Assembly (NCBI GenBank): GCA_964187785.1
Contig: OZ076413.1
Location: 20,956,001-21,020,000 of the forward strand
DNA: 64,000 bases
Reading direction: 5' to 3'
Origin: Amphiscolops sp. MND2022
Lineage: Eukaryota
A model generated the notes under the pieces. That model did no database searches. It saw only the letters and a list, made by a program, of their open reading frames with translations, and had not been told where the DNA came from. This document shows positions 27,991 to 63,311 of the stretch, one piece after another. Position numbers and translations under genes: made by a program. Position 1 is the first letter of the stretch; each line of letters begins with the position of its first letter.

Positions 27991-28299
27991 CAGTATTGAT
28001 CACTCAAAATCAGCGGACCAATCAGAGAGCAGCAGCAAAAGTGTCATTATAGCAGCAGTATTGGAGTGGAATCCAAGACAAGCATTGTCGTGGTATCCGA
28101 GACACGCTTAACATCAAAGAGAAATTTTGTTCTGGATTCCACGACTTTTCTCGATTTTCGTGTCCTGGTTTCCACAAAAGCAGCAAAATAGCTTGCCTGT
28201 GCACTGTAATGTAATGAAATAAACTCACATACGTCTACGTTTGAAACTATTCTGGTAAAACAACTCCTCATTAACATAATTTGATTTCCATACTAATTT

Positions 28300-40600: not shown

Positions 40601-40763
40601 ACTTCATTTTTATTGACAATCAAACCTTTCAATACAAGGAGAAAAGGCTTTTTTAAAAATATTTCTGAATTTTTATAGTATTAAGACTATAAAAATTCAG
40701 AAATATTTAAAAAAAGCCTTTTCTCCTTGTTTTGAAAGGTTTGATTGTCAATAAAATTGAAGT
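40601..40763. repeat. 163-bp near-perfect palindrome (arms ~78 bp, ~6-nt loop)
   Basis: acttcatttttattgacaatcaaacctttcaatacaaggagaaaaggc...tatagt attaag actata...gccttttctccttgttttgaaaggtttgattgtcaataaaattgaagt; about 3 mismatches. Confidence 0.95.
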
Positions 40764-41841
40764 CAATAAAATTGTCAATAAAATTTGAATTGTCTTACCG
40801 GAGAGGCTGGGATTAAAACTTCTATCATGGCTTTTGCCGGCCGAGAGGCTTCGTACACGAGAAGACTTCGCAATGGTTCATCAGGGCCATATATCTTGTG
40901 CTTCGGTGGATCCACCAAACTTGGCAAATGATCCGAGAGATATCCTTGTTTCAGGGATTGATATATTTTTTTTCAATTTTTATGACTTCAGCAAAAACAC
41001 GAAAGCATAAGAAGTTTTTAAATTTGACTAAACTGTAGAAACTGCAGCGTTGAAATACCTTCGAAAGAAGGCATATTCACTTGCAAATCCAATTAGAAAG
41101 AGCTACCATGTTTGGTAAACAATTGTGAAAAGGTCCATAATGATATGAAAAACCAAAATGTTAATCAATTGGATTTCGAATCAATTTAATTGACATAGAA
41201 ACATTGTTTAGTCTGCTGTTTTGAAGCTGGGAATTCGAGTCCTGTCAGAATACTAGTTGCTCTCAATGATCATAGAAACTTTGTCTTAAATTGTTGATAA
41301 CTATCTGAGAGACAGTTATTATTCAATTTTATTCTACGTAGATCAATCTCATCATTTATTATGTTGCATGGGTTTATGCTTCTTCAATCCCTGCCTTGAA
41401 TGATTTGGGTGAAGGTCGGATTTTGATATTTCTAAATGTCTTTACAATTGAACATATTTCTTCAGATTTTTCAAGGCAACCGGTGCAGAGAAGTTGGCAG
41501 AGAAAACCGGAATTAAAAAAAAATCTAAAATTGAGTTTCAATTGAAAAAAAGCAATCATTTTTGTACGGTGCCATACCGGAACCAAGTTAATGAGTACAT
41601 GTCAACTGGGAAAACTTAACGAGCTTAACCTGATATATTCAATTTACTATATTTACTAACAGTTTCACGTTAGACTTTATGTTCATTTGTGGAACAATTC
41701 CTTTGTTGTGAAGTTGCATGAAAGACATTTGAGGAAAAAACCTCTTTTATCACCAGGGTGAACGCCTTGTGCTGCCAGCAAATATATTTATTTAACAAAT
41801 ACCGAACAAAATATTACATTATCGGAACAAAAGGGAACAAG

Positions 41842-43839
41842 TGTCGGAACGTGCACAGGTCTTGGCAGACGCTGTATTTTGACTGTTACCTTCTCCAGAA
41901 TTGGAGGATAACTTTTCAGTTAATGCCAGAACTAGTCCAGTTAGGTCGCTGATTTGCCTATTCATGTCGGAGAAACGTTGGTCTATCGATTTCTGCTCTG
42001 GATTATTATAGGTACTGATAAGGTTTCAATTGTCTAATTCATCGATTTGGTCTCTAGAAAGGACCTCTGGAACACTACTTTCGCTTTCCGTGTCGCTACT
42101 TCTGTCATTCATATCCATTCCACCCAAGAACACTGGGATAGAACTTCTTTTGTTAGAACGAGTGTTAACCATGGTAAAGAGTGTTTAGAGTTTAAGATTT
42201 ATTGATCGAAGAAAGTTTATGTTAGAAGGTATGTGAAACGAAGTTAGTGTAAATAACGTGTATGCAGGTAGGTACTGAACGTTAAGGTACAAAATGCTCT
42301 AATGGTAGCACCTATTTGCTTCGTGTCAATTATGGCGATGCTGGTCACACGACCACATCGACCAATCATATTGCAGTACTCATTCGCACCTTAGTGGGTA
42401 ATTGCGCAATTCGCGCCTCAATTTGGTACAACACAGAAAATGATGTGCAATCTTGTTGCTATGGCTACATGACTTATTGCTTAGTGTATATGGTAATATG
42501 ATGATGGTAATATAAGCTCATCAAAGCACGGTAATACTATATTCACTGTACGTGCACGTGGTAATGCATTGTGATGTTAATGGTGTTGCGTATATCATTA
42601 GTTGGTTGGGTAAAGATACTAATTGCACTTACAAGCACCAAATGGATGAAGTGAACACTGATGATAATACATTAACTACATCATTGACTAAATGCTACGA
42701 GATTGATTCTAATGAGTATATGTAAAAAGGGAATGATTATCGTAAATAAATAGTTGGACACTGCTTCGAGATTAAATATAGTAGATGCATGTAATAAGTT
42801 TGAGTTTATTTTACTTGATGTAGTTTGCCCAAATACATTCTTTCCTTTCAGTTTTTCGGTCATGTTTTCATTTATTATATCTGCTTTTTGGGTGTTGTAT
42901 GATTGAGCTCATTCTTGTTCGGTATATTCATGCGTCAGGCATGACACTCCGGGTCTTTTTTTTCGAAAAAGGTGCATGATGGGGAAAGTGGGCGGCGACT
43001 TTTACTTGGGGTGTTGGTTGAGTTTTTACTTGTCGATCGGCGGAGTTGAGCTCGGTGTTGGTAATTGATCGGAAGTGGCAGTGATGTTGTCATAGCAACT
43101 GCATCTGCTGCAGTGAATTGACGTCATGGTCGGAATTATCGGGTGGTTTCGTATTTCATCTCAGTGGGGAGGAGAAATGTTAACTGCGCGTCGAGTTTTC
43201 CACTTCGGTAGAGAGTAAATAGAAGTCGGTGTGGCGAGGGTAGCCACGTCATCCACTCGTGCGCATTGGTTGCAGGTAGAGAGTGAGAGTAAGAATGTCG
43301 TCGCCGGAAATCAATAGCGTGGCAGCGCAATTGTAATAACTCGGCTCATTCGGTACTTGTTTGGAAGTAAGATGCAGTGGAATATTGCGCGTTATGTTTT
43401 CATAGCTGCCAAAACTGAGTGAATGAATTAAACTATTTGTCACGATAGAACTGTTGTTAATTGGAATTGCAGTAAGTTGTTTAGCGGTATACCAGATGGA
43501 AGTGAGCTAATCAAAATGGTCATTTTTGAATCGTTCAGGATGGGGATTACATCAGGAAGTTTTGTGCATAAAGTTTTCCTTTCTCCGGAGAAATTTAGCG
43601 ATTTGTGAAATTCGAACCTTGTGGTTCTTTGATTAGTAGGGTGGTCAAATGGTTGTATTTCGAGTAAAGTTTTTATCAAATGTCTCTTTGACGTGGGTGG
43701 TAGGCTATCATTTCCAGGTGATAAGGGTGATCAATCCTCATTCTGTATAACGATAGCTGCTGAAACCTGGTAAATCGCAAATTTGTTCCAGAGATTGTTT
43801 ATATGCTTTGACATTCGTTATTGATTGTTCTTGGTTATT
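41842..43839 (-). mobile_element. 3' end of a second Gypsy family: ORF remnant (43000-43839), PPT (42838-42850) and a ~996-bp 3' LTR (41842-42837)
   Basis: On minus, aaaggaaagaa|TGTATTTGGG ... cgttccgaCA. Upstream ORF fragments 43136-43679 in shifting frames. The ORF is cut abruptly at about 43840. Confidence 0.6.
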
Positions 43840-43847
43840 TGTTAAAA

Positions 43848-46800
43848 ATGGCCGCTGGAGAATTATCGGAAGGAGAGGTTGCATCATTAGTAGAAGCGGC
43901 AGAAGGAGCGTTGGCTGAGCTATCCAGTTTTGACCATTTGTCGGACGAGGAAGGTCTCGTTGCATCAGTGGACGAATTACTAGAGGGTGCGACTCAGTCG
44001 GTATGTTGTCAGTTTGCCGGGCGAGTAGATGAATCCAATGTGGAAACCGCTACTACCTTGCTCGAAATAGCTCTCTCTAGTGAATTCCGTGAGTAATCCA
44101 AAAAGTTTTTGTACTATTTTCTTTGTATTGATGATCTGTTGATAAGGGCAGGCATTTATCATTTTGTGTTTAACTTCGGAACTCATCAAGGTAATGTGTG
44201 TGTGTGCATAGCATCGTTAATGCAGGATATGATTAATGAGCGGCACTCTGTAGGCTCTTCCCGGGATCTATTACCTTGGGTAGACTGTTGGAACGTTGGT
44301 TTTAAGCCGATGAACTGCCTGGCTGATTTTCCCCATGTGTGTTGTAGAATCCTCGAATATGACCGATATTGTTGCCATGTTGCGGCGGATGCTACAGTTA
44401 GAGCGTCGTCAGGTGATGTAGCAAGTGTGGGTGCGTGCGAATCCGAGCTCAGGGTTTACTGCTACACTCAGAGTGGTAAGTGAACAAGTTGGTATCTTCT
44501 GTATGTTCTGGTGTAAGATAGGCACCATTTCAATCATCTACTGGTAGTACCGTATGACAGTCGTCCCTTGATTTTCACTGACATAAGGGTAATGTTGGAG
44601 AGGTCATTGTTAGGGGTGACGTATGTATGGTGACGGCATTGTTTACCCTTTTGTAATTTATTCCAGGTGTCGCGAGTAGTTCCGCTTTGAGTGTCGACAC
44701 TGTGGTGGCTGCAATTACTCGGTTGGAAAAGGAGTTGGCTAGTGTTGTCAAGGCAACAGTTGAATCCACCCTGGGTCGGTTAGGCACTGTGGGCGCGCTA
44801 GCTGTGGACGATTTCGTTCAGCGATTGGTCACGGCTGTATCGCAGTTGAAACCTGTCAGTGGTTCGCTTGTTGCCATCCCTGGACACGATGTGCCTGTGA
44901 CTCCTACATTGCCTGCTGGGATAGTGTCGGTTGGATCTGCTGTCCCTGTGACTCCCTCAGTTGCTAGTTTGCAGGAGTCAGTCGCGCCATCATTGTTCGG
45001 CGAGAGTGCTGTGGTCGGGCCGGCCAGTGTTGCGAAGTCGGCTGGTGTTACACCTGGTAAGAATCTCATAAGATCATGGGGGGTTTAGGGGGAAAGATTT
45101 TAGTGATTACAAGAGCATCTCTATACTAAGATTTAAAAGTTTTTTTTGTTTTTTTTTGAGTTTCACTTGTTTGTTGCAGCGCGTACTAAGAAGATCAAGA
45201 CGCTGAAACCTTCTTATTTTGTGTCGAGTGTTGTGGGGACCTTCGTTGGTTTTCCTCGCAACAAGAGAGTGATTGATGGTTACGCTCGTTGTCTGCTATG
45301 CCGGGCGGACCTGAGCATTGCGGGGCGCGGGATCTCATCTCTGTGGGATCATTGGAAGGGGGTGGAGCACACCCGTTTGGAGCAAAAATATCGGATAATG
45401 ACCCACAGACCGCTCCTAGACAAGTCCTGCAGGCCTGTATCTGCAGATGAGGATCGCCGGATCAGACTTGCTCGTTCTACCGAACCGCCAGTTTTTATGG
45501 AAACGGACCTGAACCTGACAGTCGAAGAACGCATGGCTATTGAAGAAGCTGAGGCAACAGAAGGGGCGCGACCACATTTGCCGGACGATAGTGTGGGTTA
45601 TCTGTGGCTGAATAATTTTATATCTAGCTTCCTGGTTGCGAGGTCCATCGAGGGGGTGCTCTATTCAATGGATGCCTGGCGAAGTTGCATGGCGAATGAA
45701 CTACATTTCGAGTGCCGGACACTGGACTACGCGCGTTGTCAGGTTATTTGAGATAATATTTCTTTAACACGTAGAGGGTCGTACCGCGTTGTTAAATCGT
45801 GTATAATGTGATTGTTGGGGTTGCTTTGTGGTTTTAATGTCGTTATGTTCGGGACGTTATTTGTTATTTAGAGTCTGATACTGTACGGGTGTTACCCGTA
45901 TGTTGTGGAGCAATTGGATACCCTTGTGGAGGCGAGTTCATGTATTGGCGTCAGCAACCGTCGGAGTGGCTGGCAGTGGCGTGGCGAGCTTCACATCATC
46001 GGCAATCATGGTGTGAAATCGGTGGTACTCGCTCTGGTGACCGATGGAACTGGATGGGAGAAGAGGATGCTGGGTAACGTGGTACCCTTACTTGCATGTC
46101 TGAAGGACAGAACATTGCTAAAAACAGTGGCGGTCGAGGGAGAGACTCACGTTGGGAGAGCAGTGGCGGGCATGGTAGCTCCCAAGACGCCTCTCGTGGT
46201 TGGACTGCTAACGGCAAAGTCAGTTTTCAATGAGGTGCAGAGGCATTTCCGGGTGGAATTTTCAGGATTGGACCCGCTCAGTGTCTTAGAATACTTCGGT
46301 GTGAGAATGCTACCTGTAGTCCAGGAGAAGTTTTTGGATCGATTGCCGTTGTTACGACAGGTGGATATGTTATAAAGTAATGCAAGTAGTTTGCTGAAGT
46401 CGCTATTTGTGACTTTAGCTTCTTTTATTTTTGTTTTTTTTGGAGTTGCTAAGTGTAGTATAAGGTTTATGTATTTGGACAGCTCTTTGGATGTTGGTTA
46501 TGAAACGCAATTTTGTTTCTGTTGTTCTAGTATGTACGTGTCGGTGGAGAGGACATCACTCAGTTAGCATCCGTCTGTGCAGAAATTGTGGAGTACTGGA
46601 ATGATTTATCGTTGTACTTCGGGACTCATCGTCCAAACGTCACCTCAGAACTACGGCCGATTACCCCACTGGAAATCCAAGTGTTCGAAGACGCGATGAT
46701 TCGTCCTCGGTTTGCTATCTTGCGGCTCGTTTTGGATTTAAGTGAGTATGAGACAATAAGTTGTACAAAAGAAGGAGAAAAAAATTTTTTTTTGTTTGAG

Positions 46801-48217
46801 TTATCTTTTCCGTCGTAGTAGTGAGGACTCATTTGCGATGTTAAGGCTACTATTGTACTTTACTTTGTTTGCAGTGGTGAAGCATTGTCCTCGACTGTGT
46901 GGACGTGGTCGAGACTACGGCGTTGTTGTGGAGAGGGAGCTAGCTCATTTCTTGCTCGGGTTAATGAGGTTCATTTACCCAGTTACCAGTATTCCTGCAG
47001 AGTACGAGATTACAGCATTGCTTCAAGTTATTGACTCTGATTGTGTGGATGTCGATGCCTATTTGTACAAGAAACATTTCGGGCAATATTTCCGCTACGA
47101 CATCAGTTCCCAACTATCCTTCTTTTACAAGGCAGTACAGAAGATGCTGGTGGGTTTGTGTCGTGGGCTAAGTGGAATGTGGCAACGGACCTGGCCGAAG
47201 CATCTAAGTTTAACACCGTTTGATCCAGTACTTATACACCAGGGTTCGGAAGATCGTCGTGTGGACTCATTAGTGGAGACCTGTGCTGTATTGACTGCCC
47301 ACGGACTAGTCGATCTGGACGACGGCGGTGTAGTACAGCAGCAGTAGAGAGAAGTCACGCCGTTCTTTAAGAAGCGGTGGTCGTTTTGTGTGGACGAGCT
47401 TCCTGCTGTGGACGATGTGATTGCTATGTAGCTTTCTTATCCTCATTGGAGTCGGTGTGCTCAGTTGCGCCAAATAGTAAACCTAGTGCTCAGTGTGGTT
47501 GTTGTCAGTAGTTATCAGGCTGAGTTTGTTGACAACGCCGCTACCGCTTTGGACCCTGATGAACTTGCTTCGAGCTTACATTTAGTTTGTAGTTGATTCG
47601 GACATTCCTTCGTTGGAAAATCATTGCGTATTGCCGAGACGACGGACATGCAAGTCTCTCGTCTGTCCGATAGTGTTCGGGCCAAGCCCTGGGACCAATT
47701 ACTGAAAGTCGGGCTGGATCAGAGCTCATCATTTTGCGTAGCCTTATTGGATAAAGGACCCGAGGCACCTGTGGTGCCTATCGTGGATGAGTACAGGTCG
47801 TCTATTCTCGCACAGCTGAATGTGATGGGGGTCATGGCAGCTAGCCCTATTTGTGTTTCTCCCAAACTTACTGCACTGCCGTCAGGATCAGGAAGTAAGT
47901 CTAAAAGGCCTCGCAGTCAATCTGACGTGAAATTGAAAACGCCAAATAAGGATGCTAATGTGGTTGCGTCTACTACTTCTAAATCTGCCATACCGTCAAA
48001 GACTCGTGGTGCCATTCGCAGGAGTACTGGGAGGAAAACGCCGTCGTCTACAGGACGTCGAACTGGAGGGAAACCTCAAAGCGGCAAAAAACTAGTATTG
48101 TCATTGGTTGCTAGTGAGTCGGCCGATCAAGAAGATCAGTTAACAGATGACGGTTTAGTGAAAACCAGTCGTCGAGGAAAACGTACTATGAGGATCGAAT
48201 CTTCTGACGAATCCTAA
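43848..48217 (+). pseudogene. Seven-exon BED-zinc-finger, hAT-transposase-derived gene (~1,150 codons) with three in-frame stops in the last exon
   Basis: Exons 43848-44088, 44254-44475, 44667-45056, 45180-45742, 45872-46360, 46531-46741 and 46875-48217. All six GT-AG introns are phase-consistent and exons 1-6 are open. BED finger RCLLCRADLSIAGRGISSLWDHWKGVEH. hAT-like blocks EIVEYWNDLSLYF, SFFYKAVQKML...TPFDP and QLRQIVNLVLSV. Confidence 0.85.
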
Positions 48218-48772
48218 GGAGAGAAAACTCTGTATGTGTTATTATCAAACTTTTGACTGATGTATTTGCATTGGTTTGGTATTGCGTTCTGTATGTATTG
48301 CCCTTCATTCTTTGTTTTTCTTTTTTTTGTTGGAGTTATACTCTCACTGTCGCGTGCGCGCGCGAATTGAATCATTGACATTTGCAAGCATCAATCATTG
48401 TTATGTCAATTAAAACTGAGTGACGTAGAAGTACTTGAAATCCATTTGACCGCTCGTTTGCACTTATGTAATCGTTTACATAATCACCATAAAAAAGACA
48501 TCTTTTGTGATGTTCCGTCAGTCAAAAGTGTCTGAGTTAATTGTATTTGATTCCTTTGTCTGTGTACAAAGGTCACATTTAATTTGAAACATTTGAGTTC
48601 GTCTATTTATAAAGTTCGTCTATATAATATCTCTTTTGTTTGTTTGATTTGTATGTAAACAAGACTTCTCAGTCTTGCCCAAAAAAGAAAACGGCCATAA
48701 GCCGACAAAGATGATAATTCAAAAGTTGTCACACCGATTCCTTTTCAATGTACCAAAGTCAAGTACATTTTT

Positions 48773-48782
48773 TGGCGACCAC
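48773..48782 (+). promoter_or_regulatory. BEL PBS TGGCGACCAC, probably tRNA-Arg(TCG)
   Basis: Lies 5 nt after the 5' LTR. Complementary to the ...GUGGUCGCCA 3' end known for metazoan tRNA-Arg(TCG). Confidence 0.7.
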
Positions 48783-49161
48783 AAGAAGTTTACCCCTGAT
48801 TTCCTTGAATCTTGTTCGAGACGAAGATGAGAACCGCCAAACTAGCAAAAATTGCCAATTGAATCTCGCCATTACTTACGACAACTCATTTGTATCCAAA
48901 AAAGTGGAAACTGAGTACTCGTTCTTTCAACACTGTTACCCGACGCTCCCGCAAACCCTGAAGTTACTCCCTACAAACCCGAAGACAGCCCCCGTAGCCG
49001 TTAGTTAGAGGAAACTGCGAAAAGAAGAAAAACTTTTGAAAAACTCATTGTTGTGACATTTAAACTTTAAAACGGAACATCACAACCTGTAAACAGAAAA
49101 TTAAGACGGGCAAAAAAAAACAGAAATCAGAATTTTCTAAAATCATTTAAATGGTCTCCCA

Positions 49162-49765
49162 ATGGTTTATTTCATTGGTGCAAGCTGCCTTCATGGCCTA
49201 ATGCGAAATTTGCCTTATGAATCTTACAGGAAGATCTCTCACAAGGTTTTCACAGTTCCAGGTTTGGGTTTCAATCCAAAAACTATTGATAAACTCAAAA
49301 TTCTGCAAAATCTTTTGATCAAAGGCAAACTTGCGTCCAGGAAGGACATAGTCATTTGGCACGGTTGCATTAGCAACAGCATTTCCGAACATCGGTCGAA
49401 CAATAATCAATCTCTACCTGTTGAGGACCTTGTGAGAGTCCTCAAGCCCCTAAAAAAACCGCATTAAGGCCGTAATTTACCTCCAGCGCGACAAGTCCCC
49501 CAATATCGTGAAAGATCTTTACAGAACAGGCATTCTGGTGCTACACGCCAAGAAATTGTTGTTGTCTCGTAAAAAAGCCAGGTCCGGGGAAATACTTAAG
49601 GACCTCAAGCGAATCCATCCCTCATCAGAGGCCGAGTTGCGCTTGTTCAACACCGTTCTTGCCCATGAGGACAATTTGAGGGGACTTGTGCGTTATCGAG
49701 GCAAGAAAACGAACCAAAGGAGACCCGGTAAAAAAGAAAGAAATAGAAATAAGACTTCAAAGTGA
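49162..49765 (+). CDS. Extra upstream ORF of the BEL element, SGNH/GDSL-hydrolase-like (~200 aa after removing one A from an A7 run at ~49455)
   Basis: VYFIGASC (block I-like), VPGL (block II), DIVIWHGCISNSI (block III), KRIHP (block V-like). ORFs 49162-49467 and 49508-49765 join as ...PLK/NRIKAVIYLQRDKSPNIVKDL. Confidence 0.6.
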
Positions 49766-50129
49766 AGTCACTCGAAAGCCAATACTTTATATTTTTGTTA
49801 AACCAACCATTTATCTTTGAGCTCTGTCGCAGAGTGACTGCTAAATAACGCATAGCTATTTCGGGGTTTTCTCTGGCCAGGAACCGATTAAGACGATTAA
49901 CACAGTCGCGGTGAGAGGCCAGAGAGTGGGATTTTTTTCATCAGCTCTAGGAATTTTTGGTTCGGGTGTTTCTTGGTCCACCAACCGATTAAGACGCTTA
50001 ACACAGTCGCGGTGAGTGGACTAAGAAAATTCATTTGTTTGAGCCTTTAGCAGTCACTCTACGACCGAGTTTTCCCACGAGCGGGTCGTTTCAAGTAGTG
50101 CTTTTAAACCGACAAAACTAACGTGACCG

Positions 50130-51662
50130 ATGGAAGCTAAGTGGAAGAAACTTATTGCGAATCGGGATCGAGCGGTCGCCGACGTTGCTTCCTATAATCA
50201 GCTCATTGAGGAAGCTATCGAACGGAAATCGAGGACAGTTAAACTCGACCGATTTGTGGATGAGTGTACTAAAGCCTTCCAAAGTGCAGTCGAATTCAAT
50301 CAAAGCCTAGTACAATTGGCTTCAGGAGCAGAAAATGCCTCTCAATTGGTGCCTCCACTAGAGTCGTGGTTGGAAGAATTTGTCCAAAACCATGACGATA
50401 GGATGCAATATTATAAAACTGCGCGGGCTGCTGCACCCCCCAGCGTGGCCAGCGCGTCCAAAAAATCAGACAGGGGTGAGTACTTACGCGAACTGCCACA
50501 TACAACTGACGATTCACTGTCGGGAAAGGGTTCTGCAAAAAAGGGACCTGTTTCAGTGTCCCGAAGCGGTCGCGCAGCTAGCAAACCCAGCTGTCATTCG
50601 AATATTGAGGCCTCCAGCCAGGTCGCATCTTTGACTCCAAGCCAGCGTAAATTAGAACAGCGTCTGGCCAAACTTAGGCGGGAGGAAGCCGAGCGTAAAG
50701 CAGAAGCTGAAATTTCTCTGGCTCGGCAAAAAGCAGATTTAGCTCGTCAACAGACTGATCTGCAAGCGAACTTGGACATTCGGATCGCCGAAGAAAATCA
50801 ACGGCAGATAGTCGCGCAGGCCAGGATCGAAGAAGCGGTGTATGATAGTGCAGACGAGAGTGATTGGGGAAGCATCCAACCTCGACCCCTCTTCGCAAGT
50901 CTGATTGGCTCTAACGAAGCGCGGACGAACGAATGGGTAAGGACCGGCGGTAATGAACCTCAAAGAACATCACCCACTTCCAACCTGGGGACCGGGGGCG
51001 AAGTGAACCAGCCTCAACCTATCTCAAGCCTACCTGTTGTTGTACCGCCGAGTGTGGCAAGTGTTGTGTACGCCACAACTGAACCATTTTCTCAAATTGA
51101 ACCAGTTTTCCCGCAAACAACCAGTTTCTTTGTTCCGTGGTCCAACCCAATCGAACAAGGACCATCAACACCGACACTTACACAACCACAACCCTCCATT
51201 TTTGAACCTCTTGAGAATTCGAACGTGGTTCCTCCTATTGCCGCGGCATTTCCCAACTTCCAAATGCCTGTTCACCAACAACCAGTAGTGACAAGTCTTA
51301 CCAGTCATCTTTCGAACGCGATTGCAAGTCCGGCTGCTCATGTGGCTCCCACTGGTCCAAAGTTCCAGTTCAGTGCGCCACTTGAAAATGTGCCAAGCCA
51401 AGTGCAAGCCCCGGTTCCCAGCAATGTTAATATTGGTGGAACAGCTTTCTACGCGCCCGCAAGCACCATGTGGGCTCCAACCATGCCAAACCTGGTTCCA
51501 AAACCCAGCGTTCTCCAACACGCCACCAACCCAGGTGTTCCAATTTTTCCCAACCACGTCCCAACATCTAGCGTTCACCAACCTGCTAGTAATCTCAATT
51601 TTGCCGCACCTGTCTACAAACACCAAGCCAGAATGGCAACGGACTTTCGCCTGCAGACGTAG
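50130..51662 (+). CDS. gag: BEL Gag N-terminal region (coiled-coil and Pro/Ser-rich), out of frame with the downstream polyprotein
   Basis: 510-aa ORF. The -1 frame opens near 51600 into ADVAKLIAATRKEPLPEWKLPEFSGDPLQWPEWF, the typical BEL Gag (DUF1759) start. Confidence 0.85.
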   Translation: MEAKWKKLIANRDRAVADVASYNQLIEEAIERKSRTVKLDRFVDECTKAFQSAVEFNQSLVQLASGAENASQLVPPLESWLEEFVQNHDDRMQYYKTARAAAPPSVASASKKSDRGEYLRELPHTTDDSLSGKGSAKKGPVSVSRSGRAASKPSCHSNIEASSQVASLTPSQRKLEQRLAKLRREEAERKAEAEISLARQKADLARQQTDLQANLDIRIAEENQRQIVAQARIEEAVYDSADESDWGSIQPRPLFASLIGSNEARTNEWVRTGGNEPQRTSPTSNLGTGGEVNQPQPISSLPVVVPPSVASVVYATTEPFSQIEPVFPQTTSFFVPWSNPIEQGPSTPTLTQPQPSIFEPLENSNVVPPIAAAFPNFQMPVHQQPVVTSLTSHLSNAIASPAAHVAPTGPKFQFSAPLENVPSQVQAPVPSNVNIGGTAFYAPASTMWAPTMPNLVPKPSVLQHATNPGVPIFPNHVPTSSVHQPASNLNFAAPVYKHQARMATDFRLQT

Positions 51663-54600
51663 CTAAGCTCATTGCGGCAACACGCAAGGAGCCCTTACCA
51701 GAATGGAAACTGCCTGAGTTTTCGGGCGACCCTCTCCAATGGCCCGAGTGGTTTGGTCAATTCAAAAGTGCAGTTGACTCTGCAACATTGACAGATGCCG
51801 CCAAAATGACTTACCTGAAAACACTAGTAACCGGCAAGGCCAAAGCGGTTATCGAAGGGTTTGCATACTGTGGCGACATGTATCAAGAAGCATTGAAGGC
51901 ACTTGAACTCAAGTATGGCCAACCTCAAACGGTTGTTAGTGCACATTTGGAGAAGCTTGGTAGCTGGCCGAGCGTGAAGATGCATAACTCGGAAAGCCTA
52001 ATTGCCTATGCCAATGTGATATCCAGTCTGGTGGGTGTATTCAAATCACTTGGGTTTGATGCGGACCTCCGAAGTTCCACGCTCCTGATGCAAGCTGTTA
52101 GCAAATTGCTACCAAATCTCAAGGAGGCGTGGGCGATGTATACTGTCAACCGAAAATTTTCGCGGCCGACGCTGAACGAATTCAATGAATGGCTGCAGCA
52201 GAAGAGTGAAGCCCATGATCGCATGCAGGCTATGCCTAGTGGGCGAAGCAAGCTCGACCAAGAGGGTAAAGCAAAAAATGCGAGCAGAGCTTATCCTTCC
52301 GCAACCCAGGGTAGGCCACAGTCCTCAAGTACAGGCCAGAGAACTCAAAAGACTACGCTGCAACCGACAACACGTGAACCTTGTGCAAACTGTCAAGGTC
52401 CCCATCCAATCTTTAGGTGCCCCGGCTTTTTGAAAATGACGGCAACAGAGCGAGCAAAACTAGTGGCAGAGAAAGGTTCTTGCTTTTCATGTTTGGGCAA
52501 CGGGCATGGATTCCGACAGTGCACCCGCAATATGAAATGTCCTAACGATGGTTGTAACAGCTCTCATAACAGATTGTTACACGGAGCCGAGCGCGTTTAT
52601 CCTCGCAGAACATCGGGACAAAGAATGTCAACTTCCGGCGGTGCTAACAAACAAGGCGCGTCCGAACCGAATCGGACCACCGCATTAATGAACTCCAATC
52701 TAATTGAGAACAACGTTGAGACAACTTCCATGCCTGCAACGGTTAAAGGGCTGCTCCAAATAGTAAAGGTTGAAGTTGCCGCACCCAGTAAAAGTATACA
52801 GGTTATGGCCCTTTGCGACACAGGTTGCACCCATTCCTGGATTACCTCCCGACTAGCGAATGAGTTGACGCTTGAATGTGAACCAACTAAGTTAACAGTG
52901 AAGGGGTTCAATTCAAAGAGAGAAATCAGAACCGCACAGGTCAATATTACGTTGAGATCCGTCGACCTCAAATCTTCGGTGGAATTCGCCGTCCGTCCGT
53001 TCACCAAAGATGACTTGGGTGTTGGTTCCGACGAAATTGATCTCGAAGCTCTCAAAAGAAAGTTCCCTCACTTAACCGTAGTACCTGGTAACCGCATCAG
53101 CTACTCAGACGTTGAGTTGATTTTGGGGCAAGATATCTACGAAGCAATTCGACCCATAGAATACGTCAAGCCTCCCGGGAAGAATGTACCAATGGCAGTT
53201 CTCCTGCCGCTAGGATGGGTAACAAGTGGCCCTGTGGATTCCGCCACAGCGTTTTTGAGTTCAATGTTCAAAGTATCATGTACAACCGCAGACCAAGACT
53301 TGACGGAAGAAGTCCGGCGATGGTACGACATCGAGTCATTCGGCACTCTGAAAGATGTCACCCCCCGGTCAAAGGCGGATGCTAAAGCCACAGAAATCCT
53401 TGAGCGAGCTACCCGGCACGACGGAGAGAGGTACGAAGTAGGGATGCTGTGGGCAGAAGAAAACAGCTCATTGCCCAACAATTTCTTCTCGGCGCTGGCC
53501 CAACTCAAGTCATTGGAAAGGCGTTTAGAAAAAGATGACGACCTCAAACAAAAGTACGCAGCAACCATCGCCGACGATTTCAGTAAGGGTTACATCGAAC
53601 AAGTCGACCCCAAAAACGACACCGTGAAATCTACGCGCGAATGGTACTTACCACACCATCCAATTATCCATCCGAACAAGCCTGGAAAAGTTCGACGTGT
53701 GCTGAATGGAGCGGCCAATTTCCGTGGTCACTCACTGAACAAGTCGTTGCTGACAGGACCAGACCTGTTACAAAACTTGGTGTCCATCAGTTTGAGGTTC
53801 CGTAGGCATGCCTTCGCTGTCTCTGCGGATATCGAAGCTATGTTTTTACAAGTAGGCGTTCCTGAAAGCGATCGCCCCTCCATTCGATTTTTGTGGCGGG
53901 AGGACCCCAACTCCGAACTAGTTGTGTATCAGTACACAAGGCACATTTTCGGTGCCAAAGACTCCCCCACTTGTGCAAACTACGCACTACGCCGAACCGC
54001 AGAAGACAACCGTAATGAACACCCTGAGATAGTGTCAATTGTGGAGAAAAATTTCTATATGGACGACTATCTGGATAGTTGTCCGTCCAAAAACGAATCT
54101 TTGCAGCGCAGCAGAGAACTAACTTGCCTGCTGCAGAAGGGCGGATTCAAACTAACAAAGTTTGTGGGAAATTTTCCAGAGCTCGAGCAGATTGAACCAC
54201 CGGTAGACTCAAAGGAGTCCTTACATGTCTTGGGTCTAGAATGGAACCACAAACAAGACACATTAGTCGTCAGCAGAGGAACAAGAAAACCCGTTAAGGA
54301 ACCGATTACACAACGAACTATCTTGAGTTGTGTTGCATCAGTTTTCGACCCTATTGGTTTGGTGGCACCCTACACCGTAAAAGCGAGGTTGATTTTGAAA
54401 GATATATGGAGAACGAGTGGCCAGAACTGGGACGCACCGCTGCCAACAGAAATGACACAGGAGTTCCTCAGCTGGAGCGACGCCTTGCCACTCCTGAACG
54501 ACATTCAGATCAAAAGACCATACTTCGAGTCTGAACCAGATGAAGTAGAACTCCACGTTTTTGGAGATAGCTCTCAGTTAGCCTTCGGGGCGGTTGTTTT

Positions 54601-56656
54601 TCTTCGAGGACGTCTAACTGAGGTCAATGGGAGTTGGAAAACCCAATTAGCTTTCGTGTTCGGCAAGGGCAGAGTCGCACCAATGAAAGTACTTTCAGTT
54701 CCGAAGCTGGAGTTACAAGCTGCCTTACTTGCAGCCAGACTGAAGTCCGTTGTGTGCGACGCACTTGATTTTAATTTCTCAAGAACTTTCATGTGGACTG
54801 ATAGCACCACTGTTATTCAATGGTTGCATTCCGAAGCCAAACAGCCCGTGTTTATTGCGAACCGGGTGAGCGAGATACTCGAACTCACCAGCATTGATCA
54901 GTGGAGCCATGTGGGAACCACTGACAACCCCGCTGATGACGTCACTCGTGGTTTACCCATAGAAAGCCTCAACGATAGTGCGTGGGTGAAAGGTCCAGCA
55001 TTCTTGAAAATCGATCAATGGCCCTTTCGAGCGCCAGACGTCAGAGAACTGCTAGCCAGGAAGGGAACACCCACCCAACACGCGGTATCTTCGGATGAAA
55101 CCGAGTCTGTCCTGGTTGACAGCTTCCTGACCAAGCTCTCTAAAGGTCCGATTATGAACTTTCAGTTGTTCAGTAACTACCGTAAAATTGTGCGCGTGTT
55201 AGCGTATGTGTTGCGCGCCTGCCTTCCGTCCTCAAGAGATAGCCTCACAATCGAACCAGCCGAGTTCGATCGAGCTGAAGTTAAACTTCTGGTTCTCGTT
55301 CAACAAGACTGTTTTGCTGATGAATATCGAGCTTTGCAAAGAGGCGAAACTGTCTCAAAAACCAGCAAGACCCGCAACCTTACTCCTTTTCTAGGCTCTG
55401 ATGGCCTTATGAGATGTACCGGAAGACTCCGACGTCTTTCCGAAGCCGAATTCCATATGAAACATCCCATAATACTCGACGGCCGTTATCACGTGGTGAG
55501 ATTGCTGTTAAAGTGTCTGCACGAAGAGCATCACCACCAGGGTGTGGAATACATGAGGGCCCTGGTGCAACAACGATTTGCAGTGATATCCGGCAGAAGT
55601 GCTATCCGATCTCTGCAGTCGAGCTGCGTGACTTGTCGACGCTTCCGAGCCAAGGCACCAGAACCTCTGATGGCGGACTTACCCAAAGAGCGTCTCGGTT
55701 CCGGAAAAGCGCCGTTCACATACACTGGTGTAGATTATTTTGGACCACTGTACGTCACCGTCCGCAGATCTACCGTGAAAAGATGGGTATTTCTCTTTAC
55801 CTGCCTGACCACTCGAGCTGTGCACATTGAAGTTGCGCACTCCCTCAACACAGATTCGTGTGTCATGGGGATTGAGCGCTTCATAGCACGTAGAGGTCGT
55901 CCATATGTCATATTTTCTGACAATGGGACCAATTTCATCGGGGCCGAGAAGGAACTGGTCACGCATTTCCGACAAGTCAAAAGCAAAGTAGCGGCAGACC
56001 GCTTGGCTGGAAAAGGCATCTGCTGGAAATTCAACCCACCGGCGGCACCGCATCATGGTGGCTCTTGGGAACGATTGGTGCAGAGCTGCAAGCGCCTTTT
56101 TTACCGAATTCTCGGCACTAGGCGGCTCACCGATGAAGTTTTAAGCACCACGCTCTGCCTGGTTGAGCAATTTGTCAACAATAGACCTCTGGTCCCGGCC
56201 AGTTCCGACCCTACTGACCTGAATGCTCTCACACCTAATCATTTTTTGATTGGGGGAACATCTTCCAGCTTTCCTTTTGAAGATCAGGGAGAGCGAGAAA
56301 CATTCAACTACAGGAAAAGGTTTCAGCAGGCACAAGCGTACGCAAATGTGATCTGGACGCGTTGGTTAAAAGAGTATGCTCCAACTTTGAATGTACGTCG
56401 GAAATGGAACGTCCCTAACGCAAGTCTGAAGAAAGGTGATCTGGTCTGGTTGGTCAACCAAACCAACCCCCGAGGCAATTACCCGCTCGGGCGCATCGAA
56501 GAACTTACCTACGGAGCGGACGGTATTGCCAGGTCGGGAACAGTGAGGACTAACGCTGGCCAACTTGTCCGACCGGTGACCAAGTTGGTACCGGTGTTCG
56601 ACGCATCTTCTTTGGGGCTGGAGGATGTCGCGTGCGCGCGCGAATTGAATCATTGA
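51600..56656 (+). CDS. pol: BEL/Pao Gag-Pol: DUF1759, three Cys-His knuckles, protease, RT, RNase H, integrase, DUF5641
   Basis: Open 1622-aa ORF (51788-56656) that can be extended upstream. CANCQGPHPIFRC, CFSCLGNGHGFRQC, ALCDTG, YMDDYLDS, LHVFGDSS, GVDYFGP, FSDNGTNF, HHGGSWERLV. The stop lies inside the 3' LTR. Confidence 0.97.
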
Positions 56657-57716
56657 CATTTGCAAGCATCAATCATTGTTATGTCAATTAAAACTGAGTG
56701 ACGTAGAAGTACTTGAAATCCATTTGACCGCTCGTTTGCACTTATGTAATCGTTTACATAATCACCATAAAAAAGACATCTTTTGTGATGTTCCGTCAGT
56801 CTAAAGTGTCTGAGTTAATTGTATTTGATTCCTTTGTCTGTGTACAAAGGTCACATTTAATTTGAAACATTTGAGTTCGTCTATTTATAAAGTTTGTCTA
56901 TTTCTTTTGCTTGTTTGATTTGTATGTAAACAAGACTTCTCAGTCTTGCCCAAAAAAGAAAACGGCCATAAGCCGAAAAAGATGATAATTCAAAAGTTGT
57001 CACACCGATTCCTTTTCAATGTACCAAAGTCAAGTACACTCACCAGATGCTTGATGATTTGTGTGAAGGCTCTACATGTGTTGTTTTACATGTATTTAGT
57101 AGCGCTGACTACGTCCCCCTTTTTTTTTTGTTCGTCTTGAGTTTTATGCTTGGGATCACGATTAATTTACATGAGGCATGGTGGTTACTTGCGTAGCCAC
57201 CACTCAAGACAGTGTTTCATTGACGGAGGTTTACCCACAGGTCTCGGAAAGTGGTATTGACGCCCTGTGGTTACACCAAGGTGAACGAACGGAGCTGCAA
57301 CGCTCCTTCCCAATGATCGAACTAATGTGTTGCATGCTATATATACCCTAAGTGCGTGTGTTTTAACGGGTGTTTAATAACGTAGGTGTCGTTCTAAGGT
57401 GTCAATCATTTTGCATTTTACATATATTATTTTAGTTGTAAAAGTGAGCGTTAGTTCTGACGTCGTCAACGCTGATGTGTGTCATGAGACGTCATCACTC
57501 GTAACGTGTGTCAAATGTTAACGTCAGTTTAATGGAAAATGGGTTTCCCCATGTTCATTACACTTTGCGGCAAGGGGTGGTGTGATCCATCCCTTGTTCC
57601 GAATTTCGATCATGTGGTGATGATGACTACATGTATATTGTACTGTTGTTCTTTCTGACACGAGGCGAAGCCTACGAATTACCAGTAAGAACTACAGCGT
57701 CGCGACTTAAAGTCTA

Positions 57717-58109
57717 ATGAGGGTGACGACTGCATGTTACTGTCCAAGGAAGATGTTGTTGTTTTCGTTGATTGGGAAGGTTTTTGCCGTCGCAAAAACC
57801 CATACAAAACTAACATCGAATCCACTTGCTAAAGAGCAAGCTTCATCTGAATGTTTGCACAACCACACAGACGCGCTTTTGATGACGCACCCACACAGCC
57901 GAACCACATCATGGTTTGTCAGGGCGGAAGTGTAAGTCTAGATTTTGGCAACGTAACTTAAACGGGTCAGCGGTTTCTTTTACATTCTCAACTGTGGACT
58001 GTGACGTGTTCAAAAAACAGTTTAGTTTAATTGATTCAGGGTTAGTGGGCACAGAATTCCCAAGCAATTCCTTTGAATTTGTGTGGTCGAGATTTTTCGT
58101 GAATTGCAT
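57717..58109 (-). pseudogene. Small Cys-containing accessory ORF downstream of integrase (~130 codons, 3 internal stops)
   Basis: A single frame reads MQFTKNLDH...HFRPDKP*CGSAVWVRHQKRVCVVVQTFR*SLLFSKWIRC*FCMGFCDGKN... Confidence 0.5.
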
Positions 58110-58383
58110 AAATTAGTAGGTCGTTTACGTGTGTATTAAATGTACTCAATGATTTCCGGTTGGAGTGATGTGGTGTATATGACTGCATTACATGTATTTA
58201 CTTTCGTGCTCAGCTGTCTCGGTAGAGAGTAACATTTTACTCTGCCGGTAAACTAATTTTATGTAGGACAGTGAGTATCAGTCGTCACTGAATGGTGGAA
58301 AGTGAATAGAGAAATTCGATGGTGTGATAGTTGCATGTGGTGGAGTAAACTACATCGTATTGATTACATGTATTTTCATTTTT

Positions 58384-61300
58384 CTATTGGTTTGCAGATT
58401 TGCGTTGCATGAATTTTAGGAGTGCGGGCTTTGCTTGCAGTTCATGAACTAGAAAGTTGTCAAACGTTTTAGGCACTGGTGCCTCACGAAGACTGTATCG
58501 GGTAATATTATTTCGTGTAATTGGCTGGGATGTTTCGGCAGATGATGTGGTCGATGCCGCATCATTATTTGGATGGATTTGTTGTTCAGGCAGTTGATCA
58601 GGAGACGGCGTGTACATTTCATTTGATTGAATTTCAGCTTCAGATCGATGCGTACTGTCGGTGTGGACGGTCTCAGGTAGAGGGTTATCCAGAGGTGGTA
58701 CCTCATGAACCCTTTTGTGTTCGTAATAGATTGTTCCATGCTCAGTGTTGACTGTGTCAGTTTCATTTGTGTCTATTTCTACTGTGTTTTCAGCGGGAGG
58801 TAGCGTTTCTGATGCAGATAGATTATCGTTGAATATTGATTGATCGTCGATTTCGTCGGGATCACTATAGTGTCGTGATGCATCGTCGTGTATGTCTTCG
58901 ATGGGATCGTGTGGTACGAATGGGCGAAGCCGCTCTCTATGTACGCACTGTGTTCGGAATGTACCAACTTTTCTGATGATATAGTTTGACTGCGACAGGA
59001 CTTTAACTACCTTGTAAGGTCCTTCCCATTTGAAAGAATTGAAAGGGATTTTTTCAGATTGCTGGCCAATTTTGGGGTTCAGTAAAAAGACAAAGTCGTT
59101 TACTTTTAAAGGTGACGCTTGCGCTTTCCTGTCATAATACGACTTGTATTTATGGAAAGCACGGATTATGTTGGTGTGTGTCTCTTTGAATTTCGCATTC
59201 AGGTTATCCACTAACGTCTTCGTGTCAACAGCGTTTCGAGGCGGATTGAGGGGGTTGCTGAACTTCAGATCTAGTGCATTGTATGGTACTCGACCGTGGA
59301 AGACTTCAGTTGGAGAGCATTTCAGAGTCTGGTGGTAAGTCGTGTTATGTGCCATCACAGCGGGATTGACGTATCGGTCCCATTGTGGGCGGTCCACGGA
59401 AACGTTTATTTTCAGGACTTGTTTCAAGCGTTGATGTGATCTCTCGATCATCCCAATTGTTTGGGCATGTTTAATCGTTGCGTGGGAGACTTTGATCCCG
59501 GCTTTGTTCATCAGTTCAGTTATGACTTCGGACGTAAAGGCGGAACCTTTGTCGGTGATAATGTGTTTCGGTACATATGCATGTTTTGTGAAAATGTCTA
59601 GCAGAGCATTGACGACGGATTTCGTGTCAGGTTTGCGGATCGGGATAGCAAACAGATAACGTGAAAAATAGTCACAGGCCGTCAGAATGTGTGAGTACCC
59701 ATTAGATCGCCGTAACTCACCTACGAGATCAATTTCAAGAACATCCTCAGGACCGTTGCAGGGGTCATAAATTGGTTCGAGTGGAGGTGTCAGAGTGTTT
59801 GGTTTTGCAGGTTACGTTTTAATACATTCTTGGCAGTTGTTTACAAACTCTTGGACCTTTTCCGTTACGTTTGGGACGTAGTACCTTTTCCTTAGTTCAC
59901 TTAGCATTTTGGAAGCGCCAGGGTGTCCCTGTATGGGGTCGCCATGCATCGTCCTGATTATGGCTTCCGTCGTTTCTGGAGGAACTACAATTTGTCGGTA
60001 AGCTAGATGACCTAGATTGTCAAAGAACTGTCTGTACAAGACGTTGTTTACAACTTCAAGTCTCTTACGGTTTTTAAACAGTTTTTGAAAAAAGGTACTT
60101 TTGAAGTTCACGTGGTTCGGAGGAGTTTCTTGGGCAGTAAGGATCTTAATTACACGTTGTACTTCACTACTTTCGCTTTGAGCCTTAACAATCTCTGAAA
60201 CCCCCGAAGGGCATACCTGATTTACCATGTGAACCTGGTCCCGTTGGTAAAACCGGGTGAAGAGAAGAGCTGGGTCAGAGGGCGTCACAAATGGTTCTAT
60301 CTGGGACTTCATTCCCTCGATTCGTCCGTTGTATTGTTCTTCACGTTCGCGGTGTTGTTGTGGGAACATCGTCATCAGCGTTTGCAATGTTGGGTTCGAT
60401 GACGTGGTGACATCCGGTGCATCATGGTCATCCGGGATGTACTCCTCCTCGTCATCGTCTTGTTTGGGCGTCTTGGATGCCAGGTCGATTTCCACCTTGA
60501 AGACCGGTATCTCGTCGTGCAGTTTGAGGTGGATCCTGTCTGCTGGATTGATGTCGATCCTGGACAGGTAATCGGCTGCTGGATTCTCGATGCCAGGGAC
60601 GTGGGCCAGAACGAAGTCGAATTGGAGGGCTTGGTCGCAGTAGTTCCACAACTTGGGTGGTATCCGCTTTGACTGAAAGAATCTTGTGAGGGCTTTGTTG
60701 TCCGTCATGACTATGGTTGGTTTCTTCACACTCACAAGATATGGGCGAACTCGTCGAAGGCGAAGTGCATAGCCAGGAACTCTTTTGCGTACATCGTGAG
60801 TGACATCTGGCCCTCGGTAAACCTTTGTGAACCAAAGACAACTGGTGCATATGACTTCGTCGGTCCGTCATTTGTCTCGGTGTAGTCCTCAATAAAGAGA
60901 ACGTATCCAGCTGCGTGCTCGCTGGCATCACACATGATCACTAGCTGTTTGTCCGGAAGTGGAACCTCAATGACATCTTAGCAGCATTCGCCAAGTTCTC
61001 GTTGATGTCAAATATCCCGTCTTTGTGGACTTGCGTGAGTTGGAATTTGACGTCCTTTTGCAACAACTTGTATAGAGGCACTAACTTCTCAGCTAGTCTC
61101 GGTATGTACTGTCGGTAGAATTGTACAAACCCAATGTATCGCTGAAGTGATTTCACTGAAGTCGGCAGTTTGATATTTTTCAGGAAGTCGTCAATCTTCT
61201 TCTCGATGGGCCCGATGCCTTTGCTGGTGATGCTTCTGCCAAGGAATTCGATCTCGGGATGACCAAATGCACACTTCGACATCGAGAGTTTGAGCCCAGC

Positions 61301-63120
61301 TTGCCTGACTTTGGTGAAGACGGCCTCGATGTTGTCGACTAGTTCTTCGACAGTACTGGCTGCAATGCCGATGTCGTCAACGTACTGGGCACATTTGTCA
61401 GCCTTGACCAGGGGGTCCAAATACTCTCGAACAGTACTGTTAAAGGCTGACAGGGACCGGTTTAATCCTTGGGCTAGTCTGAGGAAGGCAAATGTTCTGC
61501 TTCCGAAATTGAATGCGAGTAACTGAATTGACTGTTCATCTGCCATCTGCAAGCAGTGGTACGCTTGCGAACAATCCAGTTTGCAGAAATATCGCTTTCC
61601 AGCCATGTGTTGTGCTGCATCGGCCATCGTCGTTACTGGGTGGTTATGCTGGTTGTAGTCGTTCTTCAGTAGGTGGTTGATCCTCCTAAGGTCTACGAGG
61701 ATTCTCAGTTTTTCCATTCGGTTTCCGTTGGGCGAAGATGGGTGATGAATATTTGCTGTACGGCAATGTTGTGATTATCCCGTACTCCTGCATCAACGCC
61801 AATTCAACTAGGAGGTCGTCTTTCAAGTTCGTTGGTGTAGGCAAACTTTGTGCATAAACTGGTTCATCGTGCTTAGGAGTCAACTTTATCTTGAATTCAA
61901 AGTTGATCCCGATGTCTAATCTATGCCTGGCGAAGATGTCATGGTATTTAACCAATAGGGCCTCAACTTGCTGTTTCTCGTGCGGGCTCAGTATTGATTG
62001 TTCCCACTGAAAACATGCCAAAAATTCATGCCGCTGATCATCCTTCGTCGTTGGGTCTCCTGCTCCTTGAGTTTGACGATCTCCTCATAGATGCGGTTCT
62101 CGATTTTGTTCAGTTTTGACGGGTCGTCGCATGTCTCAGGGGTAGGGTACCATCGTTTGTCTGATTTGGCAGTGGGGTCCTGGAAAATCTGGTTCAGGAC
62201 AGCTTCGGCTTCATCTGGGTACCGCGAAATCAGATTCAGTTGGTGATCGGTCATTGGCTGCAGATTGGTTGCTTGTTTTGGCGTCAATATTTTGAATGAT
62301 GCTACAGCCGTGCCCACATTGATTGTTATCTGGTAATCTAACGGATTGGTTATCTGGACGTGAGTCCGGCCCTCCTGGGTTTCGCTTAGAGCCGGTGACA
62401 CCAGTAGTTGTGTGCGTCGTTCAAAGGCTGGTAGTCCTTCAACTGTACCGGTGATGTCACCCAAATCACGTTCAATCACTACTGGAGCAAAGGCTTGTTG
62501 ATTGGGCTGGAGTACTATCTTCTGTGTGATCTTCAGTTCTAGCATTTTGTTTTTAAACCTCCCGTTGACTCGTCGCAATTGGAGTGTGATGTCCTGGAAT
62601 TTGACGATATTTTTGGCCAGATCCAAGGTGACGGAATACTTTTTAAAGAAAGACATTCCTATGAGGATGTTTCCCATCGTTGGGAGTACCATGAATGTCT
62701 CCTCGATGATTTTTCCTCCAATAAAAATCGTAGGAGGACTTGTTTTCTCACGGGTACAAAGTTACCATTGGCTATCTGTACTTTGAACTCCGGGGCGGGG
62801 AGTTCCTCAAGAAGTGCTGCTGGGTGAGCGGTGAGGATTCGACGGAGTTCAGCTTCTGAGAGGGCGCTTTGGATTGCGCCGGTGTCTAGTAAACCGAAGT
62901 TCTCATATGCACGGAATTGGAGTGGTTCATAGAGCATCCTATCTTTCTTGTTGAGTTGGAGGGTGGCACTCAGCTGGCGTATTTCATACCTCGGTTTTTT
63001 GGGTATTTTCGGTAATTTGGCAGATGTGGTCGTTGTATCGGCATTTGGTTGATTGAAGGCTGTGTCATTGGGGGGGGGGGGGAGCTGATTGATGTTGTTG
63101 ACTTGTGGTCTTGGCTTCAT
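58384..63120 (-). pseudogene. pol: Gypsy pol (PR, dUTPase-like insert, RT, RH, IN) with several frameshifts and a stop
   Basis: ORFs 62659-63120, 61988-62692, 61686-62021, 60941-61717, 60732-60941, 59812-60735 and 58384-59511. Confidence 0.93.
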
Positions 63121-63311
63121 CTCTCTCGGTTTAATGGTGTAATTGTTAGTCGAGTGTCTGGTAATGACAAAGTTTGTAGTCTCTTTAGTGTAAGTTGAAG
63201 AACGGGGCTGCCACCCCTTCTGGTTTTCAGTATGTAGTTGAGTCGGAGTCGTAGTTTGTGGTTTTTGATTTGATAGCGCACTTTTGTATGATTGCGGAGG
63301 ATGACGTGGCT

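Follow-up and report, generated by a model that had tools for sequence, protein, structure and literature searches.

A ~15-kb Gypsy retrotransposon of Amphiscolops sp. with an antisense gene of seven predicted exons between pol and the 3′ long terminal repeat

Retrotransposons are expected to lose introns, and the locus described here raises the question of how a clade of them held on to a six-intron gene for ~1,130 residues until its synonymous sites were saturated. The locus lies in a stretch of 64,000 nucleotides (the window) from Amphiscolops sp. MND2022 (GenBank assembly GCA_964187785.1, contig OZ076413.1, positions 20,956,001 to 21,020,000 of the forward strand), in which a plus-strand gene with a BED-like zinc finger runs against a minus-strand Gypsy element. 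An earlier note on this DNA had placed the gene inside a single ~4.6-kb long terminal repeat (LTR). We find the gene outside the LTRs, and regard it as close to certain, for the layout and the coding gene alike, that the Gypsy element carries a real antisense coding gene between pol and its 3′ LTR.

Layout of the host element

The host element spans 23.8 kb here, or ~15 kb without an 8.7-kb BEL insertion, and is ordered 5′ LTR, primer-binding site (PBS), gag, pol, spacer, antisense gene, polypurine-tract (PPT) position and 3′ LTR. Comparison of the 20 kb to the right of the window with the window itself gave one main matching block, 64519–65623 against 41842–42946, the former in extended numbering just past the window; both LTRs begin with TG and end with CA, and 15 mismatches separate the pair. 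The element is made up as follows.

41837–41841, left target-site duplication (TSD) ACAAG, 5 bp; partner at 65624–65628 (extended numbering), beyond the window
41842–42946, minus strand, 3′ LTR, 1,105 bp; partner 5′ LTR at 64519–65623 (L013 519–1623)
42947–42963, minus strand, PPT position beside the 3′ LTR, A8GACCCGGAG on the minus strand, atypical
42964–43847, plus strand, non-coding 3′ internal region (alignment, no conserved open reading frame (ORF)), likely promoter and 5′ untranslated region of the antisense gene
43848–48217, plus strand, antisense gene (exons below)
48348–57038, plus strand, nested BEL/Pao retrotransposon in the 3′ flank of the gene, TSD CTCAC (Pfam Peptidase_A17, DUF1759, DUF5641)
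57044–58383, spacer from the 3′ end of the gene to the pol stop, with a C5T10 tract (alignment of copies)
58384–64000, minus strand, pol and the 3′ part of gag (Pfam), with several broken frames in the window copy
58384–59811, minus strand, integrase within pol (Pfam rve, Integrase_p58_C)
59812–60867, minus strand, RNase H and H2C2 (Pfam RT_RNaseH, weak; Integrase_H2C2)
60941–61774, minus strand, reverse transcriptase (RT; Pfam RVT_1)

The Pfam order RVT_1, RT_RNaseH (weak), Integrase_H2C2, rve, Integrase_p58_C corresponds to RT, RNase H, integrase; no Pfam match to a protease was found in the element. The region from pol to the LTR measures ~6.7 kb, and gag, PBS and 5′ LTR extend past the window end, to 65623. 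The PBS adjoins the 5′ LTR, with 13 nt complementary (the added CCA counted) to the 3′ end of an intron-containing tRNA-Leu(CAA) of this genome. Genes for such a tRNA, the likely primer, occur in a large tandem array at C8:35.59–35.64 Mb of the assembly (G000, L102), with 895 pattern matches genome-wide. The gag frame starts inside the 5′ LTR and runs through the PBS (L013 301–702, minus strand; the equivalent part of the 3′ LTR lies near 41842–42030), and the LTR-encoded gag peptide is kept at 43–54% in 8 of 11 distant loci. At the PPT position the tract is purine-rich but interrupted by CCC; the position is kept in related families, and distant families have a purer tract there.

These boundaries leave the proposed giant LTR, 43840–57113 less the BEL insertion, with virtually no standing, although the C5T10 tract and a CA close to the ATG are indeed present in the window. 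Beyond 64000 the LTR measures 1,105 bp and holds no gene sequence, and the second gene copy expected at the 5′ end of the element is absent, the sequence there matching 41842–42946. Neither proposed boundary holds in other copies: all 11 other loci examined align straight through 43840, and at 57114–57129, formerly read as the PPT, a C4+T6+ tract occurs in only 2 of 13 other copies, both of the closest subfamily, with no LTR following. The interval 42947–43847, previously assigned to the ORF of an older Gypsy, has a longest open frame of 129 codons in 16 copies and is the element's own 3′ internal region; the 'older' and 'right-hand' Gypsy are parts of one element. The 901 bp of this interval between 3′ LTR and ATG also provide the room for a promoter that the gene had been said to lack. 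Other points of the earlier note stand, namely the BEL insertion with its CTCAC TSD, the continuity of the host sequence across it (other copies resume beyond it) and a plus-strand G/T skew of the gene region like that of antisense Gypsy sequence.

The antisense gene and its copies

The gene model, from an ATG at 43848 to a stop at 48217, is likewise upheld, with consistent phases and conserved GT/AG dinucleotides. Seven-exon splicing is predicted, with junction phases over exons 1–7 of 1,1,1,0,0,1 and a product of ~1,130 aa.

43848–44088, plus strand, exon 1, 241 nt, with the ATG; acidic, helical, ends in phase 1 (sequence, conserved splice sites)
44187–44278, conserved non-coding element in intron 1 (regular-expression match in 33 of 38 copies)
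44348–44475, plus strand, exon 2, short helical peptide, out of frame in the window copy (alignment of intron 1)
44667–45056, plus strand, exon 3, 390 nt, helical segment then low-complexity linker (conserved splice sites)
45180–45742, plus strand, exon 4, 563 nt, BED-like zinc finger CxxC...H...H and helical segment, the most conserved exon (Pfam, alignment)
45872–46360, plus strand, exon 5, 489 nt, RNase H-like order of predicted elements, no conserved catalytic set (model, alignment)
46531–46741, plus strand, exon 6, 211 nt (conserved splice sites)
46875–48217, plus strand, exon 7, helical domain and basic disordered tail with short conserved motifs (alignment)

Splice dinucleotides were scored at homologous sites in 38 copies, counting only those whose tblastn matches reached the given site. 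They are invariant at the exon 4 donor (37/37), exon 5 acceptor (36/36), exon 5 donor (38/38), exon 6 donor (35/35) and exon 7 acceptor (38/38), and nearly so at the exon 1 donor (34/35), exon 4 acceptor (35/38) and exon 6 acceptor (30/32). Exons 4, 5 and 6 keep their 563, 489 and 211 nt in almost every copy where they were called, and splice sites and exon lengths are retained across families down to 59% identity while the introns diverge. Exon 2 was located by aligning intron 1 of 18 copies, and its peptide recurs in near and distant families; a 128-codon open frame in intron 1 had been tried for it and was rejected, the conserved acceptor sitting at 44346–44347.

Between five family representatives (exons 4–7, 744–745 codons) the 10 pairs gave proportions of synonymous differences (pS) of 0.72–0.84 against 0.14–0.31 for non-synonymous ones (pN), and six pairs of close copies gave dN/dS of 0.14–0.71. 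Identity is 40–58% in introns and 57–75% in exons, and in each of the 15 exon tests stops interrupt all five other frames. As measured in these alignments, the gene has been under purifying selection for long enough to saturate its synonymous sites. All seven exons are open in at least 3 of 47 copies (1,128–1,134 aa) under a strict automatic test, a lower bound in that the test overlooked exons 2 and 3 in several families.

The non-coding parts hold conserved sequence as well. The intron 1 element forms a 9-bp stem, with one two-sided change, that encloses a CCCGGG palindrome, and it was not seen in the most distant families; stem and palindrome are a possible dimerisation or packaging signal of the genomic RNA. 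Judged by eye, the element is unlike hammerhead or HDV-like (hepatitis delta virus-like) ribozymes, and Rfam returned no match in 41800–48400. The palindrome is also present in a family that lacks exons 4–7. A block of ~50 bases at 43726–43778 (GGTGATCA at its start), 70–120 bases upstream of the ATG, is kept in 16 aligned copies and in that same truncated family, and is a candidate promoter or RNA structure. As no AATAAA on the gene strand occurs within 1.2 kb past the stop in the 13 copies examined, 3′ end formation may rely on other signals. The 3′ flank and spacer near 57070–57170 contain TTACATG motif repeats and a block kept between families.

A genome search with 43700–48347 returned 64 matches, with 13 other near-full-length copies at 93–97% identity and more at 86% and ~70%; the exon 4 peptide found at least 150 gene loci at 65% identity or above, and two distant queries add further families. 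The link to Gypsy is general. Nineteen of 20 loci sampled over 65–84% identity have an opposite-strand integrase 4–6 kb downstream, tail to tail, and 9 of 10 fetched elements have LTR pairs of 1.0–1.2 kb on either side of the gene, eight of them with a 5-bp TSD that is exact and the ninth with one mismatch; the tenth had no LTR pair within the fetched stretch. LTR pairs were present in 3 of 3 further full elements; in one of these the two LTRs are identical and both gag and pol are open. That complete element, and the many loci with identical scores, indicate that some families are very young. Among 11 more distant loci (59–64% in exon 4 where whole), seven have an integrase, one its last 18 residues and one an LTR with RT; the other two consist of exon 7 fragments standing alone, for which no connection to Gypsy was seen. 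The idea behind the earlier note holds in that the gene is antisense, lies inside Gypsy and moves with it, introns included; the proposed location within an LTR does not, none of the LTRs of the other fetched elements being gene-bearing. The outcome that would have favoured independent hAT insertions, copies with terminal inverted repeats (TIRs) and 8-bp TSDs and unlinked to Gypsy, was not encountered, 19 of 20 and 9 of 11 loci being continuous with Gypsy.

Searching in reverse, from the integrase, we took 20 of 150 matches as hard cases, chosen for showing no gene match in the preceding searches; in 15 the gene is present in whole or in part, in antisense every time, and five are without exons 4–7. 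The truncated family (five copies, L127–L136) consists of ~10.6–11-kb elements with LTR pairs that are longer, ~1.6–1.8 kb; exons 4–7 are lost and there is no open exon 1, while intron 1, the region upstream of the gene and a remnant in which exons 2 and 3 are fused are kept. Since this family has still spread, the full protein is not needed in cis, which suggests that the gene product acts in trans. A tandem array at C1:55.53–55.58 Mb (G000; L105, L106) has five units of ~10.5 kb that contain an LTR and a truncated gene; the unit examined has no gag-body or pol match, and the array is probably a segmental duplication.

The gene and its backbone do not share one history. In the 29 of 40 copies with both, the exon 4 and integrase trees disagree, and on 17 copies each tree rejects the other's clade (approximately unbiased test, p-AU 4e-48 and 2e-66, values flattered by the groups having been named after the trees were seen). 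Two mosaics illustrate the exchange: element C5_21.4 is 92–97% identical to L045 in LTR, spacer and pol, whereas its gene matches that of the window's family at 95% identity, and C12_39.4 joins a window-type pol (90%) to an L051-type gene (93%). The exchanged unit comprises several hundred bases upstream of the ATG and the whole gene with all its introns. As read from these trees and mosaics, the gene swaps as a whole cassette between Gypsy backbones, likely through template switching in reverse transcription.

Elsewhere in the window, the nested BEL element has a 511-codon frame at 50127–51662, upstream of its gag-pol, with no Pfam match. Positions 1–8000 and 16300–25700 hold 100% identical repeats spaced 4,003 bp and a dispersed repeat family of ~100–200 bp, a 231-bp tandem repeat occupies 27356–28048, and a long inverted repeat at 40601–40763 (58-bp arms, 95% complementary) is MITE-like (resembling miniature inverted-repeat transposable elements) or fold-back.

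Ancestry and possible role of the product

The peptide of exons 1–3 looks acidic and helical. The exon 4 finger matches Pfam zf-BED in 5 of 12 rows, below the cut-off (best E 0.026), and one of 13 host hAT frames by hhalign (64%, E 6.6e-5); in these comparisons (hmmsearch and hhalign, with frames from 46 host hAT loci) it alone was supported. For exon 5 the predicted order is helix, three strands, helix, strand, helix (AlphaFold; predicted local distance difference test (pLDDT) 43), and its model matches RNase H-like and other small folds at Z 4–6 (best 6.0); the helical exon 7 model (pLDDT 41) matches generic helices (best Z 5.3), and no transposase is among the best 50 structure matches of either. 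Aligned locally with the catalytic segments of host hATs, exon 5 scores best in the correct register, around the first Asp. Read in this register, 6 of 12 rows have Asp at the first position and 2 of 12 have it at the presumed second, and CxxH is found in none of the 12. The Asp count and the missing CxxH make catalytic activity unlikely. Descent from a hAT transposase that lost catalysis is suggested, if not shown, by the finger and the order of segments, and we lean slightly towards it.

Pfam scans of the exon peptides gave no match to hAT dimerisation (PF05699), TRP28 (PF04195) or bZIP, and exon 7 none to hAT C-terminal profiles; DUF4371 had no match anywhere, which is uninformative. The tail of exon 7 is basic and divergent; most families retain three short sequence motifs in it, RxQxxV, RTGGKP and, at the terminus, hydrophobic-ESSDE. 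The second we take to resemble the histone H3 tail; mimicry of that tail found no support in a PDB profile search, which did not return H3. No named homolog emerged: PDB searches with six profiles gave nothing under E 0.38, word-index protein searches gave six fragments of this family only, the exon 7 profile had no match among proteins of 960–2740 aa, and Atlas matches were at chance level or none. A full profile search returned 175 proteins, all without a name, and the 10 clusters looked up were ENA-only, again nameless.

The explanation to which we give an even chance as a whole is that of a ~15-kb Gypsy whose antisense seven-exon gene encodes a predicted DNA-binding, trans-acting protein that keeps the elements transcriptionally active. 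The genomic RNA would read the minus strand, so that the introns lie on the complement, escape splicing and are copied into every new insertion; the introns thus apparently persist through their opposite-strand placement, because the packaged RNA would be their complement. A separate plus-strand transcript would start in the 3′ LTR or the adjoining 0.9-kb region and be spliced and translated. The protein would be nuclear and bind DNA through the BED-like finger, and its acidic N-terminal helices and tail motifs could recruit host chromatin factors. That it is an activator or anti-silencing factor is put forward tentatively, at slightly under even weight; this role is favoured because most of the sampled elements keep the gene, it functions on more than one backbone, and a truncated family is able to spread in their company.

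Several findings weigh against this explanation. The finger hardly varies while the LTRs diverge, which is not what a family-specific anti-silencing factor would show; strong purifying selection fits a cis-acting product more easily than a freely shared one; and the data do not separate activator from repressor. The window copy is itself broken, with exon 2 out of frame and in-frame stops in exon 7 at 47345, 47429 and 47594. Both structure models are poor, the exon 5 alignment score of 17.06 compares with 17.0 for the best of 40 block shuffles, and the profile comparison of exons 4, 5 and 7 with host hAT transposases did not rise above shuffles. The fullest version, in which a Gypsy clade captured a hAT transposase gene with its introns in antisense, catalysis decayed, and the gene is now a shared, swappable anti-silencing or activating cassette whose tail engages chromatin and SUMO machinery, we think rather unlikely to hold in every part; if true, a retrotransposon would have domesticated a DNA transposon for its own defence.

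A protein of opposite sign, a self-repressor or copy-number brake that lets elements persist cheaply, perhaps with double-stranded RNA silencing added by the antisense RNA, we consider unlikely. HBZ damps transcription from the 5′ LTR of human T-cell leukaemia virus type 1 (HTLV-1). The ESSDE motif, as we take it, resembles phosphorylated SUMO-interacting motifs of repressors, and a shared repressor is compatible with cassette swapping. The layout, too, is that of HBZ (PMC1459196, PMC3185765). Loss of a repressor should be free or favourable, yet 15 of the 20 hard-case integrase loci keep at least part of the gene, and the family has a great many copies.

An accessory factor of the particle or of integration, serving to tether the pre-integration complex, to import it or to direct it to safe sites, is a shade less credible again. 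It would use the predicted DNA-binding finger and the basic tail, which is like a nuclear localization signal, and a cis preference would account for the strong selection; such roles have been proposed for plant antisense ORFs (PMC7264820). Cassettes move, however, between backbones whose integrases differ by up to ~30%, and the family without exons 4–7 still inserted. We judge it improbable that host genes, perhaps those active in stem or germ cells, are the protein's targets and that the element gains from this indirectly: the near-invariant finger over diverging LTRs does suggest a fixed, possibly host, target, but no host target or copy was found and nearly all near-complete copies checked lie in elements. 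A hAT transposon sitting in Gypsy as a neutral passenger, as the BED-like finger and hAT-like domain order might suggest, is refuted by saturated pS with low pN and further opposed by the conserved splice sites, the fixed position in all families and, as the earlier note had remarked, the lack of TIRs (no inverted repeat of at least 30 bp flanks the gene in the window; shorter ones would be missed), and scarcely deserves weight.

Comparison with known systems

The layout of an antisense accessory gene is known; its multi-intron, coding version in an animal LTR retrotransposon appears new in the literature searched, which yielded no such gene and did not take in subscription papers, Repbase/Dfam entries or supplements. 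The accessible parts of PMC9289625, PMC9940879 and PMC9911081 contain nothing comparable. Splicing-blind ORF annotation would fragment or miss such a gene, and similar genes may therefore be overlooked in other animals. The role of antisense accessory genes in LTR elements is an open question (PMC7264820, PMC11963269), and the present system has natural controls for it: no fewer than 150 copies, families of very recent origin, cassettes that have changed backbone and a family from which most of the gene is gone.

The closest likeness is to the antisense ORFs between pol and the 3′ LTR of plant and fungal Gypsy elements, whose function is described as unknown in a review that calls for a search for antisense and spliced transcripts (PMC7264820); some of the plant products are nuclear, with their own promoter, and are proposed regulators (PMC7264820, PMC11963269). 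This aORF-3R group (maize Grande gene23, rice RIRE2, Retand TRP28 PF04195; fungal Boty) shares with our element the Gypsy host, an antisense coding region kept in most copies, a several-kb pol-to-LTR region (2.9–6.6 kb in Retand elements, which carry TRP28 ORFs; PMC11963269) and a putative DNA-binding regulatory product (PMC7264820, PMC11963269). The plant and fungal cases are described as ORFs, the word 'intron' occurring 0 times in the accessible text of PMC11963269, whereas six predicted, conserved spliceosomal introns are found here, in an animal host, which the presence of a BEL/Pao element also suggests, with a protein of ~1,130 aa that has a BED-like finger and no TRP28 match.

HBZ and the other deltaretroviral antisense genes are likewise spliced, coding and antisense at the 3′ end of an LTR element (PMC1459196, PMC3185765); HBZ, however, is a retroviral bZIP protein that starts in the 3′ LTR, and the present gene has no bZIP, seven predicted exons and a Gypsy host. 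Arabidopsis Copia elements produce multi-exonic antisense RNAs from their 3′ end (10.1101/2024.04.02.587720), which are non-coding, in contrast to the coding cassette under purifying selection described here.

Among DNA transposons, VANC (VANDAL) and TnpA (Spm) are element-encoded, trans-acting DNA-binding regulators, as proposed for our protein; TnpA is reported to be transposase-derived, and catalytically dead transposases can be sequence-specific regulators (10.64898/2026.08.24.746577). Here the gene sits in a retrotransposon and the activity is predicted. The hAT transposases of Ac/Hermes type share a BED-like finger with, after it and in the expected register, what is here a predicted RNase H-like segment, and differ in that our gene has no TIRs seen, no conserved DDE/CxxH and no significant profile match beyond the finger, along with extra N-terminal exons and a basic tail. 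Finally, Ogre and Burro are also large Gypsy elements with extra coding capacity (PMC6431247); in the present family the LTRs are 1.0–1.2 kb (~1.6–1.8 kb in the truncated family), and it is the antisense cassette that accounts for the size.

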